DNA from: Lytechinus pictus
Lineage: Eukaryota
Assembly (NCBI RefSeq): GCF_037042905.1
Contig: NC_087250.1
Span: 4,652,001 to 4,716,000, forward strand
Direction: 5' to 3'
DNA length: 64,000 bases
The notes beneath the pieces are model-generated. The model was not told where the DNA came from and did no database searches. It worked only from the letters and a program-made list of their open reading frames with translations. Shown here one piece after another: positions 1 through 16,774 of the stretch. Within the stretch, counting starts at the first letter, position 1. Each line of letters starts with the position of its first letter. Both the position numbers and the translations under genes were made by a program.

Positions 1-15
1 CATGAAGTAATATAT

Positions 16-319
16 ACCGTGTTTACACTTGATCGGCTTTTGGTATACACGCTGTTCCTGATGCAAAAACCTGAAATGATACGCACAACAACAATATACG
101 TCATAATAAAGACAACGCTGGATCCGTGCACTTACAATTACGTCACAATGGAAAAGTAAATAAAATGCGCACCAATTGCCGATGCAGAATCGGCTTTCTG
201 TTTACACGTAGTAAAAAAGCTGATGCAAGTTAATCGCGTTTACACGCTATGAAAAAGCCGATGCTGCATTGGCTCGCGGTTCAGAACCGATGCAAAAGCT
301 GATTAAGTGTAAACACGGT
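16..319. mobile_element. MITE
   Basis: TIRs accgtgtttacactt / aagtgtaaacacggt. Confidence 0.65.
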
Positions 320-354
320 AATAGTGAATTTCTACATCTTTTGCTTTTATCTAG

Positions 355-516
355 AGCTTCAAGTCAAGCCCAGCTACGAAACAGATAGAACTAGATCTCT
401 TGAGGACCCTACCGACGAACAGACACTACGAGAAGATGGAATCACAAGGGGTTCCCAAGTTACGAAGAGTTCTACTCGCCTACAGCGTTCACAACCCTGC
501 TATCGGATACTGCCAG
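355..516 (+). CDS. TBC1D2B: TBC1D2/TBC1D2B-like Rab-GAP, first exon visible in window (gene starts upstream)
   Basis: tag|...|gtaa boundaries. Encodes SFKSSPATKQIELDLLRTLPTNRHY...AYSVHNPAIGYCQ with the TBC IxxDxxR and YxQ catalytic fingers. Confidence 0.9.
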
Positions 517-1122
517 GTAACAGGCGACCTTTGATAAATTTGCAGAAGCTGTATTGAATGATTACCGTATGTATGTATTGTGCCTTCCCAAATGAAGAAA
601 AACCATGTCAGAAATTGTGGATTGATGTTAGAAAATTACAATACCATATAGATTTAGATTTTTTTTAAGATTTATTGATTTATTTCATTTCTTTTCTTTC
701 CATTTTTCACATACAAGTCAAAAATACATAAATACAATTACAAAAATGAACAAAAGTAACGACCTTACATTTGCAAAGATTGCGTATTTATACGAACAAA
801 ATACGATACTTATATCCTCATTTTATAAAACTTAACATTCTTAAAAGCATGAGTATTCGTGTGTATGTTAAAAAAAGAAAGGGGTGAAATTAAAAGAGAG
901 ACCAGCTGAGAAGCTAGGCTTGTTGGACGCTGATCTCTCGAATTTGTAAATAATGTAAATAACGTAATATAATGTAAACTTGTTAAGTGATCATTCGAAT
1001 CAAGGGAACATAAATAGTAGGAAAATCGCTGAACATAAGGATTTATCTTTGAGTATTTGCCTCATGAAATACTGCCCATAGCTCATCCAATATTTTGTGT
1101 TAATTGTTTGCTTTCAATTCAG

Positions 1123-1181
1123 GGATTAAACCGAGTTGCTGCCATTGCGTTGCTGTATCTTGAAGAGGAGGATGCATTCTG
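1123..1181 (+). CDS. TBC1D2B: TBC1D2B-like exon
   Basis: cag|GLNRVAAIALLYLEEEDAF(W)|gtgagt; phase matches both neighbours. Confidence 0.9.
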
Positions 1182-1257
1182 GTGAGTTGGCTGTAATCTG
1201 GGCCCCCGTAAACATGAGGCTTAGCGATTGATCATTGGGCCGATTTCTATGATTCCT

Positions 1258-1526
1258 GGGCCCCGTTGTACAAAGAGTTACAATTGATCCGATCAATCGT
1301 AACTCTATGGAAATCCATCAGTTTCATAATTTTTTCTACAGGATATTTGCAAAATGTCCTTTGTAATCAAAGAACACCCCAAATTGTCAAGAAATCAATG
1401 AATTTATGGATATGCATTCATATCTAGAATTTTTTTTGAACAAACATGCATTTCATATGTTGACTTTGCTGGCTTTCCATAGTTGCGATTGATCGGATCA
1501 ATCGTAACTCTTTGTACAACGGGGGC
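1258..1526. mobile_element. ~270-bp GGGCCC-ended MITE (Harbinger-like); other copies at about 3530-3771, 11977-12240, 14236-14508, 38657-38923
   Basis: Long TIRs gggccccgt..caaagagttacgattgatccgatc; CWG flanks on some copies. Confidence 0.8.
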
Positions 1527-2695
1527 ATTGATTATTGTGTATGATCAATCGTAGAAGTCAGCCCCATAAACAATCACTTAGCTTTATGTCACAAGCCCTG
1601 TTGAATGTTCATAGATGCCACTATCCAGACTTATAAACATATTTTGGCCATTAAAAACACATTTTACATGTACATGTATTAACAGGGTCATTCAAAATGG
1701 TGTTTTTCAGGGGTGTGAGAGTTCAGATTTCTATCTGATTTCAGATTTTTTTTGTTTTGATTTTCAGCTTAATTTCAGCTTATTTTTGGCCTTCCTCTGT
1801 AAAAAAGTATGGGAGCTCTTTCTATTTCAGACTTTTTCAACACTCTTCAGCTTTTTTCAGATCTTTTTATTTGTGACCACTCACACCCCTGGTTTTTGTT
1901 TTTCCCCCTTTTTGTTATTGGCATCCATGAATATACATTTACTGTGTTGTACATGTATTATTGTGTTATTGCAAATTTCACTACTAATTAACTGTTAACG
2001 TGTCCCTTTTTGCTACGCCTGTACAATGTACATGAAAACTCAATAATACCACAAGAATAAAATCATGGATTTCCAGTTTAAGGCCCGGTCCCACTTGCCG
2101 ACGGACACAAAACGTATTCATAACGGATACAGCCGTCTAGCAAAATTTTGGGGTGGCTCCATCCGTTTTCATCCGCTCCAGACAATGGACAAAATGGCTG
2201 AACAATGAAATCACAGTGGACGGATGCTCGAAGGATATAGAGCGTATGAAACACGTAATATGCAAAGAGTACACAATGGATACATAACGTTTTACAACGG
2301 ATGGCAAGATTCTTTTCCGTTTTACATCCTCGCTGCATCCGTACATGCAGTGGGACCAAGCCTTTAGTTGTAAAATTGCAAGGGACAGTAATATAATTAT
2401 GTGAAACATACATAAAATAAATGTGCAATTAAATTTTGAACATGTTCTAAATTTCTTTCAACAAAAAACTATTTGCAGCAACGAACACTACATGTATTTG
2501 CGAACTTTCTTGCAACCATTTACGAACCCTGGCGATATCGTCACATTTACCGCTAAGTGAGAACCCCCTTTTGGAATATTCAAATTGATTCTTGACTGTT
2601 TATACATTGTAATGTTATCTAGAAAACATTTTAATACTTTTTGTATGGGTGTTTGATCCCTGGTTTTCTATACATTTTAATGTATAGAATGTATA

Positions 2696-2974
2696 GTGGA
2701 GCGTTGTGGCCCAGTGGATTAGTCTTCGGACTTTGAAACAGAGGGTCGTGGGTTCGAATCCCAGCCATGGCGTAATTTCCTTCAGCAAGACACTGATCCA
2801 CACTGTGCTGCACTCAACCCAGGTGAGGTAAATGGGTACCGGTAGGAAGTAATTCCTTAAAAAGCTGTGTGCGCTATGAACGCCTAGCTTAGCCGGGTAA
2901 TATAGGAGCGCCTTGAGCACCTAACAAGGTGGATATGTGCGCAATATAAATACCCTATATTATATTATTATTAT
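2696..2974 (+). mobile_element. tRNA-derived SINE, family A
   Basis: A box tggcccagtgg, B box ggttcgaatccc, core cccaggtg..aaatgggtacc, (tta)n tail; near-identical copy at 42597. Confidence 0.85.
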
Positions 2975-3004
2975 CAAGAAGACATTCTAATATTGTTTGT
3001 ATAG

Positions 3005-3148
3005 GTGCTTGATTGCCATTGTAGAGTACATCATGCCAATGGATTACTACAGCAAGACATTGATTGGATCACAGACCGACCAGAGAGTCTTCCGAGAGCT
3101 TCTGGCAGAGAAAATCCCAAGACTCCACGCCCATTTCGAAGAGTACTC
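3005..3148 (+). CDS. TBC1D2B: TBC1D2B-like exon
   Basis: tag|CLIAIVEYIMPMDYYSKTLIGSQTDQRVFRELLAEKIPRLHAHFEEY|gtacgt; phase 2 to 2. Confidence 0.9.
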
Positions 3149-4974
3149 GTACGTATTGGTCAAAGATCGACCACCCTCCCCCCCCCCCCCTCCTCCTGTT
3201 ACAAACTTGATCATTTTCCTCAAGTCTTTCTGACAGAGTCTGATTTTATAGACTAAGTTAGGGCAGTCTTTGTGTTATGGTAATCAGGGGGGGGGGAGGT
3301 GTTTCATGAAAGTTTTTTTTGTCTTTTGTATTTATATGTTTTATTGGGTCAACACAGACCAAGTATAAACAAAAATAACAAATCAAACATAATTAAACTA
3401 TTTCATGAAAGTTGTCAGCACTGACTAAATCACAGCGCTGACAATTTCAGTGAAATCCTTGGTTTTGATTGGCTGACAGGCTCTGTCCCCTGACTGTTTC
3501 TATGGTAACTGTCATGGAACGTTCCCCAGGGCCCCCGTCTTACAAAGAGTTAAGATTGATCTGATCATCTTAAACTATAGGGAAATCCAACATTGTCATA
3601 ATTTTTTTTCTCCAGGAAATTTGCATGCTGTCCCTTGTAAACAAAGAGAAGCACACTAAATTTTCAAGAAAACAATGAATGTATGATTCTACATCACATC
3701 TAGAAAACATTTTGAATAGTTGTACAATGTAGTTGATTGGTTCAATCGTAACTCTTTATAAGACGGGGCCCTACTCTGTAATGAAGCGAACTATTCCAAA
3801 GTGGAACTACATGAAACAAGAACAGTAATTCTCTAAATTTCAGATACTTTCTTTCGGGATTTTAATTTTCAATACTGAATTCTGAAAAATCATTCATATA
3901 CTCTTAGAAATTATGTCGAGTAATCATTATTTGTTTTGTTCATTTTAATTTGTTATTTCAGGATAGATTTGTCATTGGTCACTTTCTTGGGGGATATTAA
4001 TTTTCTATACTGAATACTGAAAAGCAATTGATATACTCTTACATGTAGACATTATGTTGAGTAAAACATTATTTGTTTTATTCTGTTTAATATGTTATTT
4101 TAGGATAGATATGTATTTGGTCACTTTATTGCATGATTTTATTTTTCAATACTGAAAAATCATTGATATACTCTTAGAAATTATGTTACATAAAACATTA
4201 TTTGTTTTATTATTTTCAATTTGTTAGTTCAGGATAGATCTGTCATTGGTCACTTTCTTGGGGGATTTTAATTTTCAGTACTGGAATTTGTTTTATTATA
4301 TTTACTTTATTATTTCAGGATAGATTTGTCATTGGTCACTTTCTTGGGGGATATTAATTTTCTATATTGAATACTGAAAAGCCATTGATATACTCTTACA
4401 TGAAGAAATTATGTTGAGTAAAACATTATTTGTTTTATTCTGTTTAATACATATATGTTGTTTCAGGATGGATCTGTCTTTGGTCACTTTCTTTCTGGAC
4501 TTTATTTTTCAATACTGAATACTGAAAAATTATTGATAAAATCTTATAAGTATGTTTAGTAAACATTATTTTTTAATTCTTTTTAATTTGTTATTATAGG
4601 ATAGATCTGTTATTCGTCATTTTTGGGGGGGATTTTAATTTAAATACTGAATACTGAAAAATCATTCACATACTCTTAGAAATTATGTTGAGTGAAACAT
4701 TATTTGTTTTATAATTTTTAATTTGTAATTTCAGGATAGACTTGTCATTGGTCACTTTCTTGGGGGATTTTAATTTTCAATACTGAAAAAAAAACTTGAT
4801 ATTCTCTGAGAAATTGTGTTGAGTGAAACATTATTTGTTTTATTATTTTTAATTTGTAATTTCAGGATAGACCTGTCATTGGTCACTTTCTTGGGGATTT
4901 TGATTTTCAGTAATGAATACTGAAAAAAAATCATTGACATACTCTTAGAAATTATGTTGAGTGAAATATTATTT

Positions 4975-5141
4975 AGAAAGTCAAAAAGGGGCCTAAGCTT
5001 TCGATCCTACATGTAGCAGAATCTTCGTCGGAGGCGAAGATTCTGCTAGGATCGAAAGCTTAGGCCCCTTTTTGACTTTCTAATTTACTCCATTGGCTCT
5101 CTTTTATTAGATAAGCAGTTTTCAGCAGCTTCTTTTTGCCA
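4975..5141. mobile_element. Penelope-like inverted terminal-repeat fragment with degenerate hammerhead
   Basis: Hairpin at about 4975-5083; tgaaatattattt duplicated on both sides; minus strand reads ccgacga..gaaagctta. Confidence 0.55.
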
Positions 5142-6328
5142 TTGAAATATTATTTGTCTTATTATTATTAATTTGTAATTTCAGGATTTACCTGTCATTG
5201 GTCACTTTCTTGGGGGATTTTAATTTTTAATACTGAAAAAAAAATTGATATTCTCTGAGAAATTATGTTAAGTAAAACATTATTTGTTTTATTATTTTCA
5301 ATTTGTTAGTTCAGGATAAATCTGTCATTGGTCACTTTCTTGGGGGATTTTAATTTTCAGTACTGGAATTTGATTTATTATATTTACTTTATTATTTCAG
5401 GATAGATTTGTCATTGGTCACTTTCTTGGGGGATATTAATTTTCTATACTGAATACTGAAAAGCCATTGATATACTCTTACATGACGAAATTATGTTGAG
5501 TTAAACATTATTTGTTTTATTCTGTTTAATACATAAATGTTATTTCAGGATGGATCTGTCTTTGGTCACTTTCTTTTTTTCATTTTATTTTTCAATACTG
5601 AATACTGAAAAATTATTGATAAAATCTTATAAGTATGTTTAGTAAACATTATTTTGTATTCTTTTTAATTTGTTATTATAGGATAGATCTGTTATTCGTC
5701 ATTTTCTTGGGGGATTTTAATTTAAATACTGAATACTGAAAAATCATTCACATACTCTTAGAAATTATGTTGAGTGAAACATTATTTGTTTTATTATTTT
5801 TAAATTGTAATTTCTGGATAGACCTGTCATTGGTCACTTTCTTGGGGATTTTGATTTTCAATAATGAATACTGAAAAAAAACTTGATATTCTCTGAGAAA
5901 TTGTGTTGAGTAAAACATTATTTGTTTTATCATTTTTAATTTGTAATTTCAGGATAGACCTGTCATTGGTCACTTTCTTGGGGATTTTGATTTTCAATAA
6001 TGAATACTGAAAAAAATCATTGACATACTCTTAGAAATTATTTTAAGTAAAACATTATTTGTTTTATTCTTTTCAATTTGTTATTTCAGGATAGACCCGT
6101 CATTGGTCACTTTCTTGGGGGATTTTAATTTTCAATACTGAATAAAAAATTGATATTCTCTGAGAAATTGTGTTGAGTAAAACATTATTTGTTTTATTAT
6201 TTTTAATTTGTAATTTCAGGATAGACCTGTCATTGGTCACTCTCTTGGGGGATTTTAATTTTCAATACTGAAAAAAAACTTGATATTCTCTGAGAAATTG
6301 TGTTGAGTAAAACATTATTTGTTTTATT

Positions 6329-7274
6329 GTCTCACCTGCATAGCAGAGTGAGACTATAGGCGCCGCTTTTCCGACGGCGGCGGCGGCGTCAACACCAAAT
6401 CTTAACCTGAGGTTAAGTTTTTGAAATGACAGCATAACTTACAAAGTATATGGACCTAGTTCATGAAACTTGGCCATAAGGTTAATCAAGTATTACTGAA
6501 CATCCTGCCTGAGTTTCATGTCACATGACCAAGGTCAAAGGTCATTTAGGGTCAATGAACTTAGACCATGTTGGGGGAATCAACATCAAAATCTTAACCT
6601 AAGGTTAAGTTTTTGAAATGTCATCATAACTTAGAAAATATATGGACCTAGTTCATGAAACTTATACATAAGGTTAATCAAGTATCACTGAACATCCTGC
6701 ATGAGTTTCACGTCACATGACCAAGGTCAAAGGTCATTTAGGGTCAATGAACTTTGGCCGAATTGGGGGTATCTCTTGAATTACCATCATAACTTTGAAA
6801 GTTTATGGATCTGATTCATGAAACTTGGACATAATAGTAATCAAGTATTACTGAACATCCTGTGCAAGTTTCAGGTCACATGATCAAGGTCAAAGGTCAT
6901 TTAGGGTCAATGAACTTTGGCCAAATTGGGGTATTTGTTGAATTACAGCCATAAATTTGAAAGTGTGTTGGTCTAGTTCATAAAACTTGGACATAATAGT
7001 AATCAAGTATCACTGAACATCCTGTGCGAGTTTCAGGTCACATGATCAAGGTCAAAGGTCATGTAAGGTCAAAGAACTTTGGCCACGTTGGGGGTATTTG
7101 TTGAATTGCCATCATATCTCTATAAGTGTATTGGTCTAGTTCATAAAACGTGGAAATAAGAGTAACCAAGTATCACTGAACATCTTGTGCGAGTTATAGT
7201 AGTTTTCAAAATCAGCACTGCTGCTATATTGAATCGCGTGATGCAGGTGAGACGGCCAGAGGCATTCCACTTGT
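6329..7274 (+). mobile_element. Helentron-associated (HINE/DINE/Tsp-like) non-autonomous element, copy 1
   Basis: 5' subTIR gtctcacctgc with nearby IR gtgagac; 3' gcaggtgagac; internal 160-190 bp repeats; sits in a T-rich site without TSD. Confidence 0.75.
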
Positions 7275-7672
7275 TATTTTTTATTTGTAATTTCAGGATA
7301 GACCTGTCATTGGTCACTTTCTTGGGGATTTTGATTTTCAATAATGAATACTGAAAAAAATCATTGACATACTCTTAGAAATTATTTTAAGTAAAACATT
7401 ATTTGTTTTATTCTTTTCAATTTGTTATTTCAGGATAGACCCGTCATTGGTCACTTTCTTGGGGGATTTTAATTTTCAATACTGAATAAAAAATTGATAT
7501 TCTCTGAGAAATTGTGTTGAGTAAAACATTATTTGTTTTATTATTTTTAATTTGTAATTTCAGGATAGACCTGTCATTGGTCACTCTCTTGGGGGATTTT
7601 AATTTTCAATACTGAAAAAAAACTTGATATTCTCTGAGAAATTGTGTTGAGTAAAACATTATTTGTTTTATT

Positions 7673-8618
7673 GTCTCACCTGCATAGCAGAGTGAGACTA
7701 TAGGCGCCGCTTTTCCGACGGCGGCGGCGGCGTCAACACCAAATCTTAACCTGAGGTTAAGTTTTTGAAATGACAGCATAACTTACAAAGTATATGGACC
7801 TAGTTCATGAAACTTGGCCATAAGGTTAATCAAGTATTACTGAACATCCTGCCTGAGTTTCATGTCACATGACCAAGGTCAAAGGTCATTTAGGGTCAAT
7901 GAACTTAGACCATGTTGGGGGAATCAACATCAAAATCTTAACCTAAGGTTAAGTTTTTGAAATGTCATCATAACTTAGAAAATATATGGACCTAGTTCAT
8001 GAAACTTATACATAAGGTTAATCAAGTATCACTGAACATCCTGCATGAGTTTCACGTCACATGACCAAGGTCAAAGGTCATTTAGGGTCAATGAACTTTG
8101 GCCGAATTGGGGGTATCTCTTGAATTACCATCATAACTTTGAAAGTTTATGGATCTGATTCATGAAACTTGGACATAATAGTAATCAAGTATTACTGAAC
8201 ATCCTGTGCAAGTTTCAGGTCACATGATCAAGGTCAAAGGTCATTTAGGGTCAATGAACTTTGGCCAAATTGGGGTATTTGTTGAATTACAGCCATAAAT
8301 TTGAAAGTGTGTTGGTCTAGTTCATAAAACTTGGACATAATAGTAATCAAGTATCACTGAACATCCTGTGCGAGTTTCAGGTCACATGATCAAGGTCAAA
8401 GGTCATGTAAGGTCAAAGAACTTTGGCCACGTTGGGGGTATTTGTTGAATTGCCATCATATCTCTATAAGTGTATTGGTCTAGTTCATAAAACGTGGAAA
8501 TAAGAGTAACCAAGTATCACTGAACATCTTGTGCGAGTTATAGTAGTTTTCAAAATCAGCACTGCTGCTATATTGAATCGCGTGATGCAGGTGAGACGGC
8601 CAGAGGCATTCCACTTGT
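7673..8618 (+). mobile_element. Helentron-associated element, copy 2
   Basis: Apparently identical to copy 1, offset 1344. Confidence 0.75.
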
Positions 8619-9018
8619 TATTTTTTATTTGTAATTTCAGGATAGACCTGTCATTGGTCACTTTCTTGGGGATTTTGATTTTCAATAATGAATACTGAAA
8701 AAAATCATTGACATACTCTTAGAAATTATTTTAAGTAAAACATTATTTGTTTTATTCTTTTCAATTTGTTATTTCAGGATAGACCCGTCATTGGTCACTT
8801 TCTTGGGGGATTTTAATTTTCAATACTGAATAAAAAATTGATATTCTCTGAGAAATTGTGTTGAGTAAAACATTATTTGTTTTATTATTTTTAATTTGTA
8901 ATTTCAGGATAGACCTGTCATTGGTCACTCTCTCTTGGGGGATTTTAATTTTCAATACTGAAAAAAAACTTGATATTCTCTGAGAAATTGTGTTGAGTAA
9001 AACATTATTTGTTTTATT

Positions 9019-9964
9019 GTCTCACCTGCATAGCAGAGTGAGACTATAGGCGCCGCTTTTCCGACGGCGGCGGCGGCGTCAACACCAAATCTTAACCTGA
9101 GGTTAAGTTTTTGAAATGACAGCATAACTTACAAAGTATATGGACCTAGTTCATGAAACTTGGCCATAAGGTTAATCAAGTATTACTGAACATCCTGCCT
9201 GAGTTTCATGTCACATGACCAAGGTCAAAGGTCATTTAGGGTCAATGAACTTAGACCATGTTGGGGGAATCAACATCAAAATCTTAACCTAAGGTTAAGT
9301 TTTTGAAATGTCATCATAACTTAGAAAATATATGGACCTAGTTCATGAAACTTATACATAAGGTTAATCAAGTATCACTGAACATCCTGCATGAGTTTCA
9401 CGTCACATGACCAAGGTCAAAGGTCATTTAGGGTCAATGAACTTTGGCCGAATTGGGGGTATCTCTTGAATTACCATCATAACTTTGAAAGTTTATGGAT
9501 CTGATTCATGAAACTTGGACATAATAGTAATCAAGTATTACTGAACATCCTGTGCAAGTTTCAGGTCACATGATCAAGGTCAAAGGTCATTTAGGGTCAA
9601 TGAACTTTGGCCAAATTGGGGTATTTGTTGAATTACAGCCATAAATTTGAAAGTGTGTTGGTCTAGTTCATAAAACTTGGACATAATAGTAATCAAGTAT
9701 CACTGAACATCCTGTGCGAGTTTCAGGTCACATGATCAAGGTCAAAGGTCATGTAAGGTCAAAGAACTTTGGCCACGTTGGGGGTATTTGTTGAATTGCC
9801 ATCATATCTCTATAAGTGTATTGGTCTAGTTCATAAAACGTGGAAATAAGAGTAACCAAGTATCACTGAACATCTTGTGCGAGTTATAGTAGTTTTCAAA
9901 ATCAGCACTGCTGCTATATTGAATCGCGTGATGCAGGTGAGACGGCCAGAGGCATTCCACTTGT
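9019..9964 (+). mobile_element. Helentron-associated element, copy 3
   Basis: Apparently identical to copy 2, offset 1346. Confidence 0.75.
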
Positions 9965-10477
9965 TATTTTTTATTTGTAATTTCAGGATAGACCTGTCAT
10001 TGGTCACTTTCTTGGGGATTTTGATTTTCAATAATGAATACTGAAAAAAATCATTGACATACTCTTAGAAATTATTTTAAGTAAAACATTATTTGTTTTA
10101 TTCTTTTCAATTTGTTATTTCAGGATAGACCCGTCATTGGTCACTTTCTTGGGGATTTTAATTTTCAATACTGAATAAAAAATTGATATTCTCTGAGAAA
10201 TTATGTTAAGTAAAACATTATTTGTTTTATTATTTTTTATTTGTAATTTCAGGATAGACCTGTCATTGGTCACTTTCTTGGGGATTTTGATTTTCAATAA
10301 TGAATACTGAAAAAAAATCATTGACATACTCTTAGAAATTATGTTAAGTAAAACATTATTTGTTCTATTCTTTTCAATTTGTTATTTCAGGATAGACCCG
10401 TCATTGGTCACTTTCTTGGGGGATTTTAATTTTCAATACTGAATAAAAAATTGATATTCTCTGAGAAATTATGTTAA

Positions 10478-11063
10478 AGGAGAATGAAACTCTTGGAGCA
10501 AGTTAGCTTTTGTGAAAGCAAAAAAATCAAAGAATAAGATCAACAAAAGTTTGAGTAAAATAGGACGAGCAATAGAAGAGTTATGAGCATTTGAATGTCG
10601 AGATCACTAATGCTATGGAGATTCTCCCATTGGCAATGCGACCAAGATCTACGATGTCACAGATGAACAACTCTCCCCTTTTGGACACTGAAAATATACC
10701 CCAAAACATCTCTTTTTTCTCATTCTAATCATATGACAAACGATTCATCAATTATATAATGTTGTGAAACCTCTGCACTTGTCCTCTCATATAAAGAGAA
10801 CACCTCACCTTGTGATAGACTCTATAAAAGTGAGAATATAAGTGAAATAAGTACTAAAGTAATGAGGGAGTTGTACGTGTGTGACATCACAGATCTTGGT
10901 CGCATTGCCAATGGGAAGATCTACATGGCATTAGTGATCTCAATATTCAAATGCTCATAACTTTCTTATTATTCATTCAATCTTCCTCAAACTTTCAACA
11001 ATATGTTTCATTGATTTTTCTCTTTGATATGGATTCAGCTGGTTTCAAGGGTTTCATTCTCCT
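10478..11063. mobile_element. TTAA-TSD MITE with AGG termini (Kolobok-like)
   Basis: ttaa|aggagaatgaaac...gtttcattctcct|ttaa; the empty site atgttaagta is seen in other array units. Confidence 0.85.
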
Positions 11064-11098
11064 TTAAGTAAAACATTATTTGTTTTACGTTATTTTAG

Positions 11099-11345
11099 GA
11101 TAGATCTGTCATTGGTCACTTTCAACTGGTTTGTCACCTGTTTCTGTGATAACATCCCTGCCGAGACCATGCTACGGATCTGGGACACCTTCCTGTCGGA
11201 AGGGAACAAGGTCCTCTTCCGCTACTCGCTGGCAGCGTTCAAGTTCTTTGAAGAGGAGCTGCTGAAACAGAACGACTATCTGAGGATCTTTGCCTTCCTG
11301 CGTCGAATGCCGGAGATGTTGACGGATGTCCAGAGACTAACCCAG
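11099..11345 (+). CDS. TBC1D2B: TBC1D2B-like exon
   Basis: tag|IDLSLVTFNWFVTCFCDNIPAETMLRIWDTFLSEGNKVLFRY...RLTQ|gtatcc; contains the TBC RIWD motif. Confidence 0.92.
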
Positions 11346-11357
11346 GTATCCAAATGT

Positions 11358-11525
11358 TGATGATGGTGATGATGGTGATGATGATGGTGATGATGAGGGA
11401 GATGATGATGATGATGGTGATGATGATGGTGATGATGATGATGGTGATGGTGATGATGATGGTGATGATGATGAAGAAGATGATGATGATGATGATGATG
11501 GTGACGGTGATGATGATGATGATGA
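11358..11525. repeat. (GAT/GGT)n microsatellite
   Basis: Direct reading. Confidence 0.95.
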
Positions 11526-11618
11526 CAGAAATAGAAATCCTCAAAAAATTCATTTTACCCAATTGATAGTATTTGAAATGCTAGCATCAATCAATGATGT
11601 TATTTTGGTTTCTATCAG

Positions 11619-11696
11619 ATTGCTTTTGATGAGCTGAATCCGTTTCCAAGGAGACATATCAACAACAAGAGAACCATTCATAGAGCACACGTCAAG
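11619..11696 (+). CDS. TBC1D2B: TBC1D2B-like exon
   Basis: cag|IAFDELNPFPRRHINNKRTIHRAHVK|gtgagt; resembles the IAFxxLNPFP segment of TBC1D2B as recalled. Confidence 0.88.
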
Positions 11697-12756
11697 GTGA
11701 GTCACGGAGCAGGTTTCACAAAACTGTGAGTTACAAATGACATTAGTGACTTTACAAATGTCTTAATACCCCTTATGTGCTATGATATATCCCTATACAG
11801 CTGACTACCTAAGAACATGTTTCAGTCATACATGTATGTAAAGTCGTGCTTAACTTTATGAACTGTTTTGTGAAACACCCGCCAGGGCCCTGTGACTTAA
11901 AACTTAGAGATTGATCAAGGGGCTGATTTCACGATTGATAACATTGATTAATGTGTATGATCGATTGTAGAAATCAGGGGCCCGTCTTGCAAAAAGTTGC
12001 GTTTGATCCGATCAATCGCAACTATGGAAAGCCAGCAAAGTCAACATATGAAATGCAAAAAAAAATCTAGATATAAATGTGTGTCCATAAATTCATTGAT
12101 TTCTTTACAATTTGGTGTGTTCTCCTTTGTTTACAAAAAGACATTTTGCAAATGTTCTGTAGAAAAAATTATGACACGGGTGGATTTCCATAGAGTTACG
12201 ATTGATTGGATCAATCGTAACTCTTTGTAAGACAGGGCCCAGTTCTATGATCAATTACGTTTAAGTTGATGTTATAGGGCCCTGCTTGTTGTTACACTAT
12301 TTAAGGAGGGAATTAACCTTGGACGGTTTCTCATATAAGTGATATCAATAATTTCATTTCATTTCGTTTAATTCAACAGTTGTACTGAAAATTGTCAAGT
12401 TATTTCCTATTGATTGTTTGTCATTAGATCTGTCATTTTTTATTGAAAAAGCTAAAAGACAATGAGAAAAATTTTGGTTTGAAATAATAATGAATTATGA
12501 GTTTACATTTATTTCCAATGATTTCTTTGATAAATTCTTTTTTTATGAATGGTAAATAAGTAATGATGAAGAGAACCGACTACCGTAAAAGGAGAGTTTA
12601 TCTAGGATGCAATATGTTGATGTGTAGTCTCATAATTCATACTCCATACAATGATGAATAATTCCTTTCTATTGATAATCTTTACAATATCCATACCATA
12701 TTATTTTCAAAGAAACTATGGTTTAATGTGCTTCCAGTCATTCTTTCTTTTAATCA

Positions 12757-13154
12757 GGGTTCCCAGCCCATCAGGGAAATCAGGGAAAATTATTTTACTT
12801 TTTCCCAGTCGGGGAAAAATCAGGGAATTTGATAAAAAATACCTCAAATCAGGGAAAAATGCCTGAAATGAGGGAAAAATCAGGGAATTTTGATCAGCCC
12901 AAATGTCGAAATCACGGTAGTCAGTCAGACTCTGTTATATTTTGTTGCATATCAAAACAACATCCATTGAATGACTGGTTATGGTGGTACTAATTAGTTT
13001 TACATTATTGTTTTTATACTGAAAATGTAATTCACTGCAACAACTTGCGAAAACACGCGAAACTAGGAAATGGTTTAAATAATTATCAGGGAATTTTTAA
13101 ACTTCATCAGGAAAAATCAGGGAATTTTGTTTTCTTGAAAAGCTGGGAACCCTG
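12757..13154. mobile_element. MITE with CAGGG termini (hAT-like)
   Basis: TIRs cagggttcccagc / gctgggaaccctg; internal tcagggaa repeats. Confidence 0.7.
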
Positions 13155-13300
13155 TTAATAGAGATCAAAAGACTACCATATGTTAAGTAAAATATATATC
13201 TGATTGTTTTATTTAAAAAAGTTTGAGTATCAAGACTACTCTAATGTACAGTGACCTATGGGAAGAGATTTACTGAGTTTGTTGACCCTTTCCTTTTCAG

Positions 13301-13432
13301 CAACAACTTGACGAGCTGGAGGCCATCAGAGCAGAGTTTGTTCCTCGTCATTCTCAGAACGGGGATGAGCTCGCAAGCGACGAGGAGGAGGATTACGACC
13401 AAGTGGAGGCGCTGTTGACAGGAACTACATGA
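13301..13432 (+). CDS. TBC1D2B: TBC1D2B-like terminal coding exon
   Basis: cag|QQLDELEAIRAEFVPRHSQNGDELASDEEEDYDQVEALLTGTT*; ELEAIR...SDEEED resembles the TBC1D2B C-terminus as recalled. Confidence 0.87.
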   Translation, partial: QQLDELEAIRAEFVPRHSQNGDELASDEEEDYDQVEALLTGTT

Positions 13433-14900
13433 ATTCCTAATGAATCATGCGATGCTGTAATGCGACCTTTGACATTTGACCCTCGACTCATTGTCATATT
13501 CAAGATCTGCCATGATGTGACATCTTCTTTCGCAAGAAAGATTACGACCAAGTGGAGGCACTATTAACAGGAGCTATTTGAAATCATGAATGAACTTTTG
13601 ATTCAGAAAAGTGACCTTTGACCTTGGACTCGTTGCCTATCATGATCTGCTTTGACAAACAAAATTACGACCAGGTGGGGATGTTTTGAGGAGGACCTAT
13701 GTGAATTCCTGAGAGAAGTTGTGATGCAGAAGGTTGACCTTTATTTGACTCAAAGCATTTTATTTACGAGGAGGATTACAACTATTTAGAGATGCTTTTA
13801 ACAGGAGCAAGATAAAATCATGAATGAACTTTTGATGCAAAATATGACCTTTGACCCATGCCTTTTATAATCTGCTGACATAAAGGAGCATTATTACCAA
13901 GTGGAGGTGTTGTTAGGATGACCTTTGTGAAATTCTGAAGTAACTTATGATGCATAAAGTGATTGTGACCTTTGACCCTTGTCTCATTGCATTTTATGAA
14001 TTGCCGTTACGTCAAATCCTGGTTGGGGAGACGACCACTGCTCGAGGTCTGAACTGCGGTTATATATACCCCAACTACAAAAACCTCTTTAGAGGATCCA
14101 AGTTATTTCATTTGGAAGCTTTTTTAACCCTGCATGACCAATTTAATCCCTCCTGCATGTATATAACTTTTCACCTCGGCAGGCAAGCCTGAGCGCCAAG
14201 CCAGGGTTAAAAGATAAAACAGCAGCTTCAAATCTGGGCCCTGTCTTACAAAGAGTTACGATTGATCCGATCAATCGTATCTCTATGGAAATCCATCAGT
14301 GTCATAATTTTCTTTTATGAAAAATTTGCACAATGTCCTTTGTATGCAAAGAGAAGCGCAGTGAATTATCAAGAAAACAATGAATACATGAATATACATC
14401 ATAGCTAGAAAATATTTTGAACAAACATGCATAGTAGATGTTGACGTTGCTGGCCGTCCATAGTTGCGATTGATTGGATCAATCGTAACTCTTTGTAAGA
14501 CGGGGCCCTGGGGTATATCTCCTCTAATGATGATTTTTTCCTCATGCTCTGACAAGGAAGATTACAATCAGCTGGAAATGTTCAGAGAACCTACATGTGA
14601 CCCTGAAAGAAATTGCGATGCAGAAAGGTGACCTGTGACCCATCGCCATTCAAGTTCTGCTGTGACACAATATTTTTTTACAATGAGGATTTTCACCAGG
14701 TCGATGCATTAGGGGGAGCTTCTTGAACAACACTACAGGAAGTCACGATTCCATGTCTTGACCTTTGACATTGAACTCATTTAACTGCCATGGCATTACA
14801 TTTACTAAATGGGGATTATCACCAGATTGAAATGATCCATGGGAAGTCAAGATTCTGAACTATGACCTTTGACATTTGACTTCATAAATTCAAGATCTGC
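13388..14900 (+). repeat. Diverged tandem repeat (~8 units) beginning in the last TBC codons
   Basis: Recurrent gattacgaccaagtggagg...tgacctttgac at about 13391, 13540, 13664, 13773, 13890, 14560, 14688, 14814. Confidence 0.75.
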
Positions 14901-16774
14901 TATACGTAATCCATTGTTTTAGTTTATGAGATGGGCTGTGATCTAATTGATGCATGGACGAGACTCATGAAAATCACCTCGCGATGTCGTATCCAAACTG
15001 GTTTAGCGTAAGTGAGGACACAGCCTTTCTTCTGGAAGCAATCTTCGCGCATTTTGAGCGTGCTACTCCGCATGACAGGTGTAGAATGCCTACGCTGCGG
15101 TTTCAAATTTCCCGCGAAATGTGTCACCCCACTGAAAGTGTTTCCATATCGCAACAAGATCGCTTCACGTGAAGTGATTTTGAAAACCACTTTTGTGTCA
15201 TCAAGTGGGAACGCTAGCAAAGCGATCTTTCAAACTGGTTTCCTGAATCGGTTTTCGGTAAACTAGTTTTAGAATGCGTAATGAGAACGGTGTCTAAGAC
15301 AAATACACGGTTATGGGTGACTTGACTTCCCCCTTATGAAATACCTCAAATCATGAAATTATGACATTTCTTGCCAATTAAATCAAGTTCCGTTCCTGTT
15401 TAGATCAACAATGTAAGAATCTACAATATTTTTATGGTGCTTGCCAAATGTGGACACCTATCAATTTTCTTTGTTTTGTTTTTTTCCCAAGGGTTTGTAT
15501 AGTATTTGAACTGTTATTTTATGGGCCGTTATAATTCTGAATCATGCGACTTGTAATTCTGTTACCATGGTAAATCACACCATTAATTATGTAAGTAGAA
15601 TATGGTGCTACATAACTGTTTAGAAGCACTTGCCCAGTTGGGCAAGTAAATTTTTAAATAGTTGGAATATACTTGCCCAAAAATCTATTTCACTTGCCCG
15701 AAAAAATCCTTGAAGTTTTACCTCTTCGAAGGAAAGTTTTGCGGTTTTATTAACCATTGACCTTTTTCTCTCTTTTGACATGAACTGATCTACCTTATTA
15801 TTGCATTTTTTTTTCCAAGGTGATTTTATCATGCCTGCCATGACCAAAATCAGGGTCCCTAATTTTGGTCATTCTGTGAGAATTTTGCTTGCCCAATTCG
15901 GGCAAGTAGTTCTGGTCTTTACTTCAAAACACTTGCCCGACTCTAACTTTTACTTGCCCCGGGCAATCAGGCAAGTGCTTATGTAGCACCCTATATGAAA
16001 TAGAGGTAATACAAATACGAATGTATTTTTATATTGAATGGGAAAAGGAAAGCAGCATATGAAACAGGCACAGAATCATGAAAAAATGGCAATGAAATGA
16101 CACAATGGAATTAAAGAACTGTGGAAGAAATTCAGAATAATAAGAAGCATAAATAACCATGGCAACCTAATTCATCTACTAGTAATATATACATTTAAAT
16201 GACTACATGTATTGTAACCTTGTACAGTTTCATGTCACCTGCAAATGTTCTCATAGTTGAAAATAGATATTTGCTTTCTTGTGACTTATTCATAATAAGT
16301 TTCCACCCCCCCCCCCCCCCTCTCTCTCTCTCAGCCCCTATCAATTTTGTTTTATGTTTATTGGAATAATAAACATAATTTATGAATCTGGACCAAATTA
16401 TAATCAGAATGTTATAATTCTATTTTCAAATACATTGTCATCAGATCAGTTTACTTTTCTCTTCTTTGCATGTTATTTCAATTTAAAGCAATTATATATA
16501 TTTACAAAGATGTAAAGTTATTCAGATTATATTGCATATATCTTCTTTTCTATATAAAATATCAAAAACGTGCATATTCATGTATGTATTCTATAGAGAT
16601 GTCTGTTTTGTTATTTGTGTGTATAAGTGATTAGTGCGTTGGATAAATAGTTCTCTTAGTGTATCAAGGATTATTATGTACATTATAATCTATTTACCTA
16701 ATCTATTTAAAATGGGATGTTTAACCCATATGCCTAGGCTTATATTCTTAAATTATGGAAAGCCGAAAATGTTG

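Follow-up and report, generated by a model that had tools for sequence, protein, structure and literature searches.

Intron 23 of a TBC1D2B-like RabGAP gene of Lytechinus pictus contains 27 decoy copies of the junction between its own 3′ end and exon 24, and the authentic junction is the last copy of the series. The locus lies in a window of 64,000 nucleotides (nt) of contig NC_087250.1 (positions 4,652,001 to 4,716,000); the positions given below count from the first nucleotide of this window. The array occupies 3843..11123 on the + strand and is interrupted by transposon insertions. It is quite likely that the array is a locus-specific "mirage" minisatellite, which grew from a tandem duplication of the junction, is bypassed by the splicing machinery through exon definition, and is neutral.

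An array of decoy 3′ splice sites

With ≤3 mismatches allowed, GATAGATCTGTCATTGGTCACTTTC was found 26 times on the + strand and not once in 100 shuffles. A search with the 25-mer at ≤5 substitutions recovered 28 copies, of which 27 are decoys (3962-10391) and one is the start of the exon (11099). A first-pass annotation of this DNA had claimed about 27 decoy copies of a real 3′ splice site in a TBC intron, and this number was borne out. The leftmost copy, at about 3843, is degenerate and internally deleted, and the array starts there.

The unit is about 130 nt in length and consists of a pyrimidine tract, an AG and the opening 25 nt of exon 24. Past base 25, all the decoys read TTGGGG, while exon 24 reads AACTGG; the divergence after the exon-like part had also been described correctly. 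The triplet that precedes the copy is CAG in 23 decoys, TAG in three (4104, 4600, and 5682) and CTG in one (5817). Because of the CTG, decoy 5817 is not an acceptor. The true site at 11099 is preceded by TAG, so that the description of the true exon as the last unit, with TAG where most decoys have CAG, stands. A junction in RNA can be assigned by these differences: after ...GAGTACTC/GATAG...CACTTTC (the slash marks the splice site), AACTGG indicates the true site and TTGGGG a decoy, while the variants GACCTG, GACCCG, and GATTTG identify the unit.

The unit spacing is mostly 129-148 nt, with two short units of 86 nt. Tandem Repeats Finder reported overlapping arrays at 3846-10445 with repeat periods of 129-135 nt and, in addition, of 86, 268, and 357, which are broken by blocks with 163/192-nt internal repeats. 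Array units make up only about half of the 7.26 kb, and the remainder is mobile-element sequence. The earlier statement that decoy copies fill the intron is corrected accordingly; the rest consists of three copies of a 947-nt transposon-like element, a palindromic element, and a 586-nt miniature inverted-repeat transposable element (MITE).

The unit is confined to this locus. A 261-nt query against the 812-Mb assembly gave 21 matches, all in C6:4655846-4663123, and a 24-mer spanning the duplication joint also gave 21 matches in 812 Mb, all at this locus (the reversed control gave 0). A dispersed satellite or mobile origin of the unit was ruled out since all the 21 DNA matches and the 21 pattern matches lie here. 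The same genome-wide query and 24-mer pattern detected no second haplotype of the locus in the assembly.

The host gene and its RNA

The nearest public proteins of the host gene product are sea-urchin TBC1 domain family member 2B-like proteins. L. pictus isoform X1 (P0016, 1120 aa) was mapped without any mismatch as 26 exons on the window plus 38 kb fetched upstream, and the window contains the last six of them (exons 21-26). Intron 23, with 7,950 nt, is the longest of the 25 introns of the gene. It is flanked by the coding sequence of the RabGAP-TBC domain on both sides. Exon 23 (3005..3148, + strand) ends in the donor CTC/GTACGT, and its peptide (3006-3146) matches Pfam RabGAP-TBC with an E value of 4e-07 at profile positions 113-158. 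The authentic exon 24 (11099..11345, + strand) encodes IDLSLVTFNWF...RLTQ between the acceptor TTTTAG/G and the donor CAG/GTATCC, and its peptide (11100-11345) matches the same profile at positions 161-216 of 216 (E 4.4e-14). Both exons are placed by the P0016 mapping and by RNA.

Contigs of run X1 and three raw runs depleted of ribosomal RNA (X19-X21) were placed on window positions 1-15000. A run X1 contig of 2,928 nt (depth 21.8) consists, on the window, of the pieces 353-513, 3004-3148, 11099-11342, and 13299-13699. The second and third of these abut exactly at record positions 724/725; therefore, the 3148-to-11099 junction is used and no decoy sequence is present in that contig. Splicing from 3148 to 11099 is thus shown. 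Another contig, located in the array at 4525-4712 (depth 3.35), follows the genome without a break through decoy 4600 and is therefore unspliced there.

The raw runs are much thinner. With about 6% of each read, bin 11501-12000 (exon 25) has a depth of at most 0.5 and the bin of the 3′ untranslated region (13501-14000) has 0-0.06. The pure array bins 4001-4500 and 5501-6000 have zero depth in these runs, which is uninformative given the near-zero coverage of the gene.

Strength of the splice signals and consequence of decoy use

Log-odds matrices were made from the gene's own sites, that is, the 24 other acceptors (-20 to +3) and the 25 donors (-3 to +6), and real sites were scored leave-one-out. 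The real acceptors score 2.2-12.7, and the true exon 24 acceptor scores 6.5. The decoys score 1.0-10.2, and 23 of the 27 reach at least 6.5. The first-pass annotation is thus supported in calling the decoys near-perfect acceptors. Among the 372 AGs of intron 23, only 25 score at least 6.5, namely the true site, these 23 decoys, and the AG at 3616, TTTTTTTTCTCCAG/G. The AG at 3616 is the strongest acceptor-like one of the intron (13.5). It lies outside the array, 468 nt past the donor, and is not used in the RNA contig seen.

The donors tell a different part of the story. The exon 23 donor at 3148 (CTC/GTACGT, 2.18) is the weakest of the 25 donors of the gene, and the exon 24 donor CAG/GTATCC scores 4.77. 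In the pure array units, there is no GT at ≥2.18 except for three marginal sites at 3919, 4549, and 5632 (2.3-2.7). An in-unit candidate, TTGA/GTAAAAC, was rejected as a donor on its score, which is below that of the weakest real donor, though a GTAAAA donor serves exon 17. Since the array units lack adequate donors, exon definition fits the choice of the last copy. Only there would the spliceosome find the body of an exon followed, 247 nt downstream, by a donor that can be used, whereas the AT-rich decoy units, practically free of donors, would not be defined as exons. Exon definition had been presumed earlier, and this presumption is reasonable. I infer it to be the reason for the use of the true site.

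If a decoy were used, the frame of exon 23 would run into a stop after 45-93 nt, or 15-31 codons, in every one of the 27 copies. The TBC domain would be cut at about profile position 160 of 216, in agreement with the earlier claim that decoy use truncates the GAP domain. Because every decoy has this early stop, such a transcript would be lost to nonsense-mediated decay or would encode a GAP whose TBC domain is cut short.

The 947-nt element brings donors into the array. It has a donor-like AGA/GTGAGA (6.55) at 6347, 7691, and 9037, and it also bears CAG/GTGAGA, for example at 7246 with a score of 11.85. Only decoys 6220, 7564, and 8908 combine the two halves of an exon definition, as a donor lies 128-130 nt downstream of each. 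The predicted pseudo-exon at 6220..6347 on the + strand (repeated at 7564-7691 and 8908-9037) combines a decoy acceptor of 8.6 with the element-borne donor of 6.55. From the scores, these three may be the best candidates for poison pseudo-exons.

AWTAAA hexamers are distributed unevenly between the strands in 3840-11098. Five were found on the + strand, all in one unit type, versus about 70 on the - strand; the asymmetry is due to the T-richness of the + strand.

Origin and growth of the array

The start of exon 24 is conserved. DLSLVTFNWF is exact in nine of the 12 listed proteins (echinoderms, one hemichordate, and one EukProt entry), and IDLSLVTFNWFVTCF is found in four of these nine; the other three of the 12 differ only at V/T positions. 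This conservation indicates that the exon start is ancestral and that the decoys are derived copies. The geometry of the duplication also identifies the last copy as the real exon, since it is the only one continuous with the remaining exon.

The 60 nt of the true junction (11064-11123) are identical to the decoys at 49-57 positions, with indels of 12-23 gap positions; the best alignments have 12, located in the pyrimidine tract. The homology of the true junction to the unit extends upstream to the MITE and resumes beyond it. Thus, the last unit is complete but is split 35 nt before the true AG. The MITE (10478..11063, strand unassigned) is 586 nt in length; its 29-nt terminal inverted repeats are 86% complementary, and TTAA is duplicated at its flanks. 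Its high unstranded read depth indicates a dispersed, transcribed family. The branch point of the real acceptor may fall in the MITE or just past its end.

Two further kinds of mobile element are present. A palindromic MITE-like insertion (4973..5083, strand unassigned) with 37-nt perfect inverted arms sits inside one unit, within a non-unit stretch of about 165 nt (about 4975-5140). The transposon-like element of 947 nt occurs three times on the + strand (6328..7274, 7672-8618, and 9018-9964), with 163/192-nt internal repeats and 13-nt inverted termini, and was inserted in the pyrimidine tract of a unit. Its boundaries were set by loose read ends at 6327 and 7275. Its RNA depth is very high and strand-specific (about 500-1000 in the raw runs), so that it evidently belongs to a dispersed family.

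The left part of the array (3843..6327, + strand), which contains 17 decoys, appears to be older and is more diverged. It includes a multi-unit duplication, in which 4233-4974 and 5315-6061 are identical at 711 of 750 aligned columns. Three tandem blocks of 1,344 nt on the + strand (5953..9986) each consist of three decoys and one copy of the 947-nt element. Block 2 matches block 1 at 1344 of 1344 positions, and two extra bases are the sole difference of block 3. These substitution-free blocks suggest, indirectly, a recent change in the length of the array. The copies at the edge (3962, 4233, and 4319) retain the GATAGAT state of the exon, while the derived GACCTG and GACCCG are common to the copies in the centre and on the right. 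This distribution looks like homogenisation that spared the edges of the array, a pattern as in amphioxus mirages.

The simplest history inferred from these sequences starts with a tandem duplication of about 130 nt that spanned the junction, taking in the final ~105 nt of intron 23 together with 25 nt from the start of exon 24. Unequal exchange would then have amplified the duplication in multi-unit blocks to 27 extra copies. Meanwhile, three kinds of mobile element would have been inserted, and one of them would have been re-duplicated together with its three neighbouring units.

Comparison with known splice-site minisatellites

In the reports on amphioxus, "mirage" minisatellites are tandem duplications of an intron-exon boundary with which regular splicing is kept, and the loci named are Adh3, troponin C, the globins BflGb6 and BflGb9, and PGBD5 (PMC3087553, PMC3902484). 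PMC3087553 describes for BflGb6 units of 150-160 nt, six and three of them in two haplotypes, and regular splicing by RT-PCR; it states that both 5′ and 3′ boundaries are affected and cites the Adh3 locus for length and somatic instability.

The present array shares with these mirages a head-to-tail organization of the minisatellite type, as seen in the Tandem Repeats Finder periods and the 28 motif copies, and a unit of comparable size that joins a splice signal to part of an exon. The authentic copy stands at the edge of the array and the rest is intronic; here, 11099 alone continues into AACTGG. Signs of unequal exchange and homogenisation are also common to both, and 5′ and 3′ boundaries are both affected in this gene (the exon 3 donor, described below, and the exon 24 acceptor). 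Regular splicing is retained in amphioxus mirages; here, one RNA contig shows it from 3148 to 11099, yet predicted isoform X2 ends in decoy 4233. There are differences as well. The host is an echinoderm and not a cephalochordate. The 27 extra copies contrast with the 3-6 reported for BflGb6, and the ~7.3 kb include insertions of three kinds of mobile element as well as a triplicated block. Polymorphism in length has been shown for amphioxus mirages, while the present locus is known from one assembled haplotype.

A human counterpart is the 37-bp variable number tandem repeat (VNTR) of F7 intron 7. According to PMC1557585, its first unit spans the exon 7/intron 7 boundary, and its pseudo-sites are functional but silent, the exon-adjacent site being chosen. 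As in F7, a minisatellite repeats an authentic splice site many times and the copy contiguous with the exon is used. Unlike in F7, it is the 3′ splice site that is repeated in the window, so that the last copy is chosen and not the first. The units are of 130 nt instead of 37, and the scanning mechanism proposed for F7 concerns donors.

Three other phenomena are similar in part. NAGNAG-type tandem acceptors resemble the close AGs TAG/GATAG/ at the junction, which give a frameshifted predicted isoform. Poison or decoy exons are defined by an observed, usually conserved and regulated inclusion. A decoy acceptor followed by an early stop would act in the manner of a poison exon if included. At a recursive splice site, a donor is regenerated at the AG (AG/GT...). 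The strong acceptors deep in a long intron are reminiscent of such sites; recursive splicing was ruled out, as the decoys read CAG/GATAGA with no GT after the AG.

In the literature searched, no report was found of mirages or minisatellite splice-site repeats in sea urchins. The locus extends mirage minisatellites from amphioxus to an echinoderm, a known kind of array in a new phylum and at an unusual scale. It can also be regarded as a natural experiment in the choice of a 3′ splice site, as 23 equal or better acceptors stand upstream and the message seen uses the last. It is suited to testing exon definition against first-come-first-served pairing, and it is the mirror image of the F7 donor repeat.

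Predicted isoforms X2 and X3

The protein cluster of isoform X1 also holds L. pictus isoforms X2 (P0017, 998 aa) and X3 (P0019, 983 aa). The C-terminus of X2, ...HFEEYSIDLSLVTFLGDFNFQYWNLFYYIYFIISG, is exactly what results when exon 23 is joined to decoy 4233 and translated as far as the TAG at 4320-4322. This decoy (4233..4322, + strand) is the only one identical to the exon at 25 of 25 positions. Thus, junction reads with an overhang of ≤25 nt fit 4233 equally well as 11099, and a placement at 4233 implies an intron that is far shorter. With a choice of decoys by strength or order, one would expect 3962, 4319, 4600, and others before 4233. Moreover, no AATAAA or ATTAAA exists on the + strand in 3398-6140 that could end a terminal exon of the X2 type. 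When residues 925-998 of P0017 were used as a query for shorter public proteins ending in a decoy, none of the four hits among 11 candidates was decoy-ended, and of the 26 proteins compared, P0017 alone has a decoy-type end. Isoform X2 is therefore probably an annotation artefact from misplaced short-overhang reads rather than a real isoform. Such arrays can yield false isoforms in automatic annotation, since short-overhang junction reads fit a decoy and the exon alike.

Isoform X3 is a different case. Its C-terminus, ...HFEEYSSVIGHFQLVCHLFL, results from the use of a second AG located 5 nt into exon 24 (TTTTAG/GATAG/ATC; 11099..11103, + strand, exon start at 11104), followed by a frameshift and an early stop. 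The second AG is repeated across the decoys. Misplaced reads do not account for X3, which shows that the acceptor is chosen somewhat loosely at the junction.

Weighing the explanations

The array is most likely tolerated as a neutral by-product of minisatellite turnover and is not a regulator, judging from the comparable loci. Several points weigh against the explanation as a whole. The exclusive use of the true site rests on one assembled contig, and contigs drop rare variants; in the thinly covered raw reads, neither the canonical nor a decoy junction is among the joints listed. Isoform X2 ends as splicing from 3148 to 4233 would, and some decoy use may be real. The matrices are small (24-25 sites) and ignore branch points, so that they rank sites and do not predict use. 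The mid-strength donors at decoys 6220, 7564, and 8908 are not covered by exon definition. Finally, the presumed neutrality is drawn from precedent.

Low-level decoy use without function is the strongest alternative, although it is still rather unlikely. In that case, X2 or the element-adjacent poison pseudo-exons would be splicing noise. The prediction of X2 itself speaks for it, as do the sloppy acceptor choice seen in X3, with its alternative AG 5 nt downstream, and the scores (8.6 and 6.55) of the decoy-donor pairs 6220-6347, 7564-7691, and 8908-9037. Run X1 also has low-depth RNA in the array, with a depth of 3.65 in bin 4001-4500 and 6.73 in bin 5501-6000, versus 0.57 in a plain intron bin. 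However, pre-mRNA signal that adds up over near-identical units sharing words can account for this depth, and the array contig 4525-4712 is unspliced across decoy 4600. X2, as argued above, may be an alignment artefact.

It is doubtful that the decoys are used at a meaningful rate as a sink, which would give products that are truncated or targeted by nonsense-mediated decay and let the copy number tune the output of TBC1D2B. The arguments for it are that 23 of 27 decoys equal or beat the true acceptor, that the first decoy lies 7 kb upstream of the true acceptor and so is transcribed earlier, that all the decoys have an early stop, that X2 ends in decoy 4233, and that no donor of the gene is weaker than the one at 3148. 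On the other hand, no decoy junction was seen in the RNA examined, that is, in the one contig or among the joints listed for the thin raw runs. The comparable repeats of amphioxus (PMC3087553, PMC3902484) and F7 (PMC1557585) are reported as silent. The annotated decoy is precisely the sole 25/25 copy, as misplacement of reads predicts, while 3962, 4319, 4600, and others score higher, and an X2-type exon would find no + strand AATAAA or ATTAAA in 3398-6140. The tuning of expression by copy number, which the first-pass annotation had suggested, found no support; the contig seen uses the true site only.

About equally improbable is a partial misassembly of the array, in which case there would be fewer copies in reality and the 1,344-nt block, for instance, might be single. 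Blocks 1 and 2 are 100% identical, and a legend (Additional file 4) in PMC3087553 notes that an amphioxus globin mirage was wrongly assembled in the genome draft. Against this, block 3 has a 2-nt insertion, the units after it differ from the block units, and 21 decoys are left even if two blocks are subtracted. Assemblers collapse repeats more often than they expand them.

Finally, an array that came first and from which the acceptor and first 25 nt of exon 24 were recruited by exonisation would account for the 60 nt shared by array and exon, but it is hardly credible, being contradicted by the conserved IDLSLVTF stretch inside the Pfam TBC match (exact as DLSLVTFNWF in nine of 12 listed proteins) and by the derived variants of the decoys, whose edge copies keep the state of the exon.

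In summary of the earlier annotation, its observation was confirmed and its interpretation is partly supported: of the RNA check it had proposed for junctions from 3148, the contig gives the join to 11099, while the raw coverage is too thin to count decoy junctions.

A second mirage in the same gene

I found that the donor of exon 3, upstream of the window, is also part of an array. A 160-nt unit is repeated 3.0 times with 96% identity at C6:4622751-4623232. It consists of the last 53 nt of exon 3, the donor ACTCGG/GTAAGG, and 107 nt of the intron, and the annotated exon 3 donor is the first copy. This triplication has exactly the F7 geometry, in which a 5′ splice site is repeated and the first unit lies on the exon-intron boundary. 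A third array, in intron 6 (864 nt, 154/462-nt period, C6:4628630-4629493), lies more than 1 kb from any coding exon.

Of the three independent arrays in the gene whose units are ≥100 nt long, two thus extend over a junction, and the one in intron 6 does not. If the chance per array is roughly put at about 14%, this enrichment is suggestive and not significant given the choice of the gene. There is only a slim chance that junction-centred duplications are a systematic process in this genome and that some copies are functional, with 6220, 7564, and 8908 as poison exons and the copy number setting the escape of TBC1D2B mRNA from decay. If so, junction-centred arrays could over time seed new exons or introns.

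Other exons and neighbouring features

The other exons of the gene in the window, all on the + strand and placed by the P0016 mapping, are exon 21 (355-516), exon 22 (1123-1181), exon 25 (11619..11696), and exon 26 (13301..13432), the last coding exon with the stop codon included, for which RNA contig pieces extend to about 13879. A scan of window positions 1-15000 with Rfam matched no family. The RNA depth of the stretch peaks (>1,100, strand-specific) over a repeat at about 2696-2840, shortly before exon 23; read ends lie at 2696 and 2840, and the repeat has no Rfam match. An (ATG/GTG)n microsatellite of 172 nt (11354-11525) begins 9 nt past the weak exon 24 donor.

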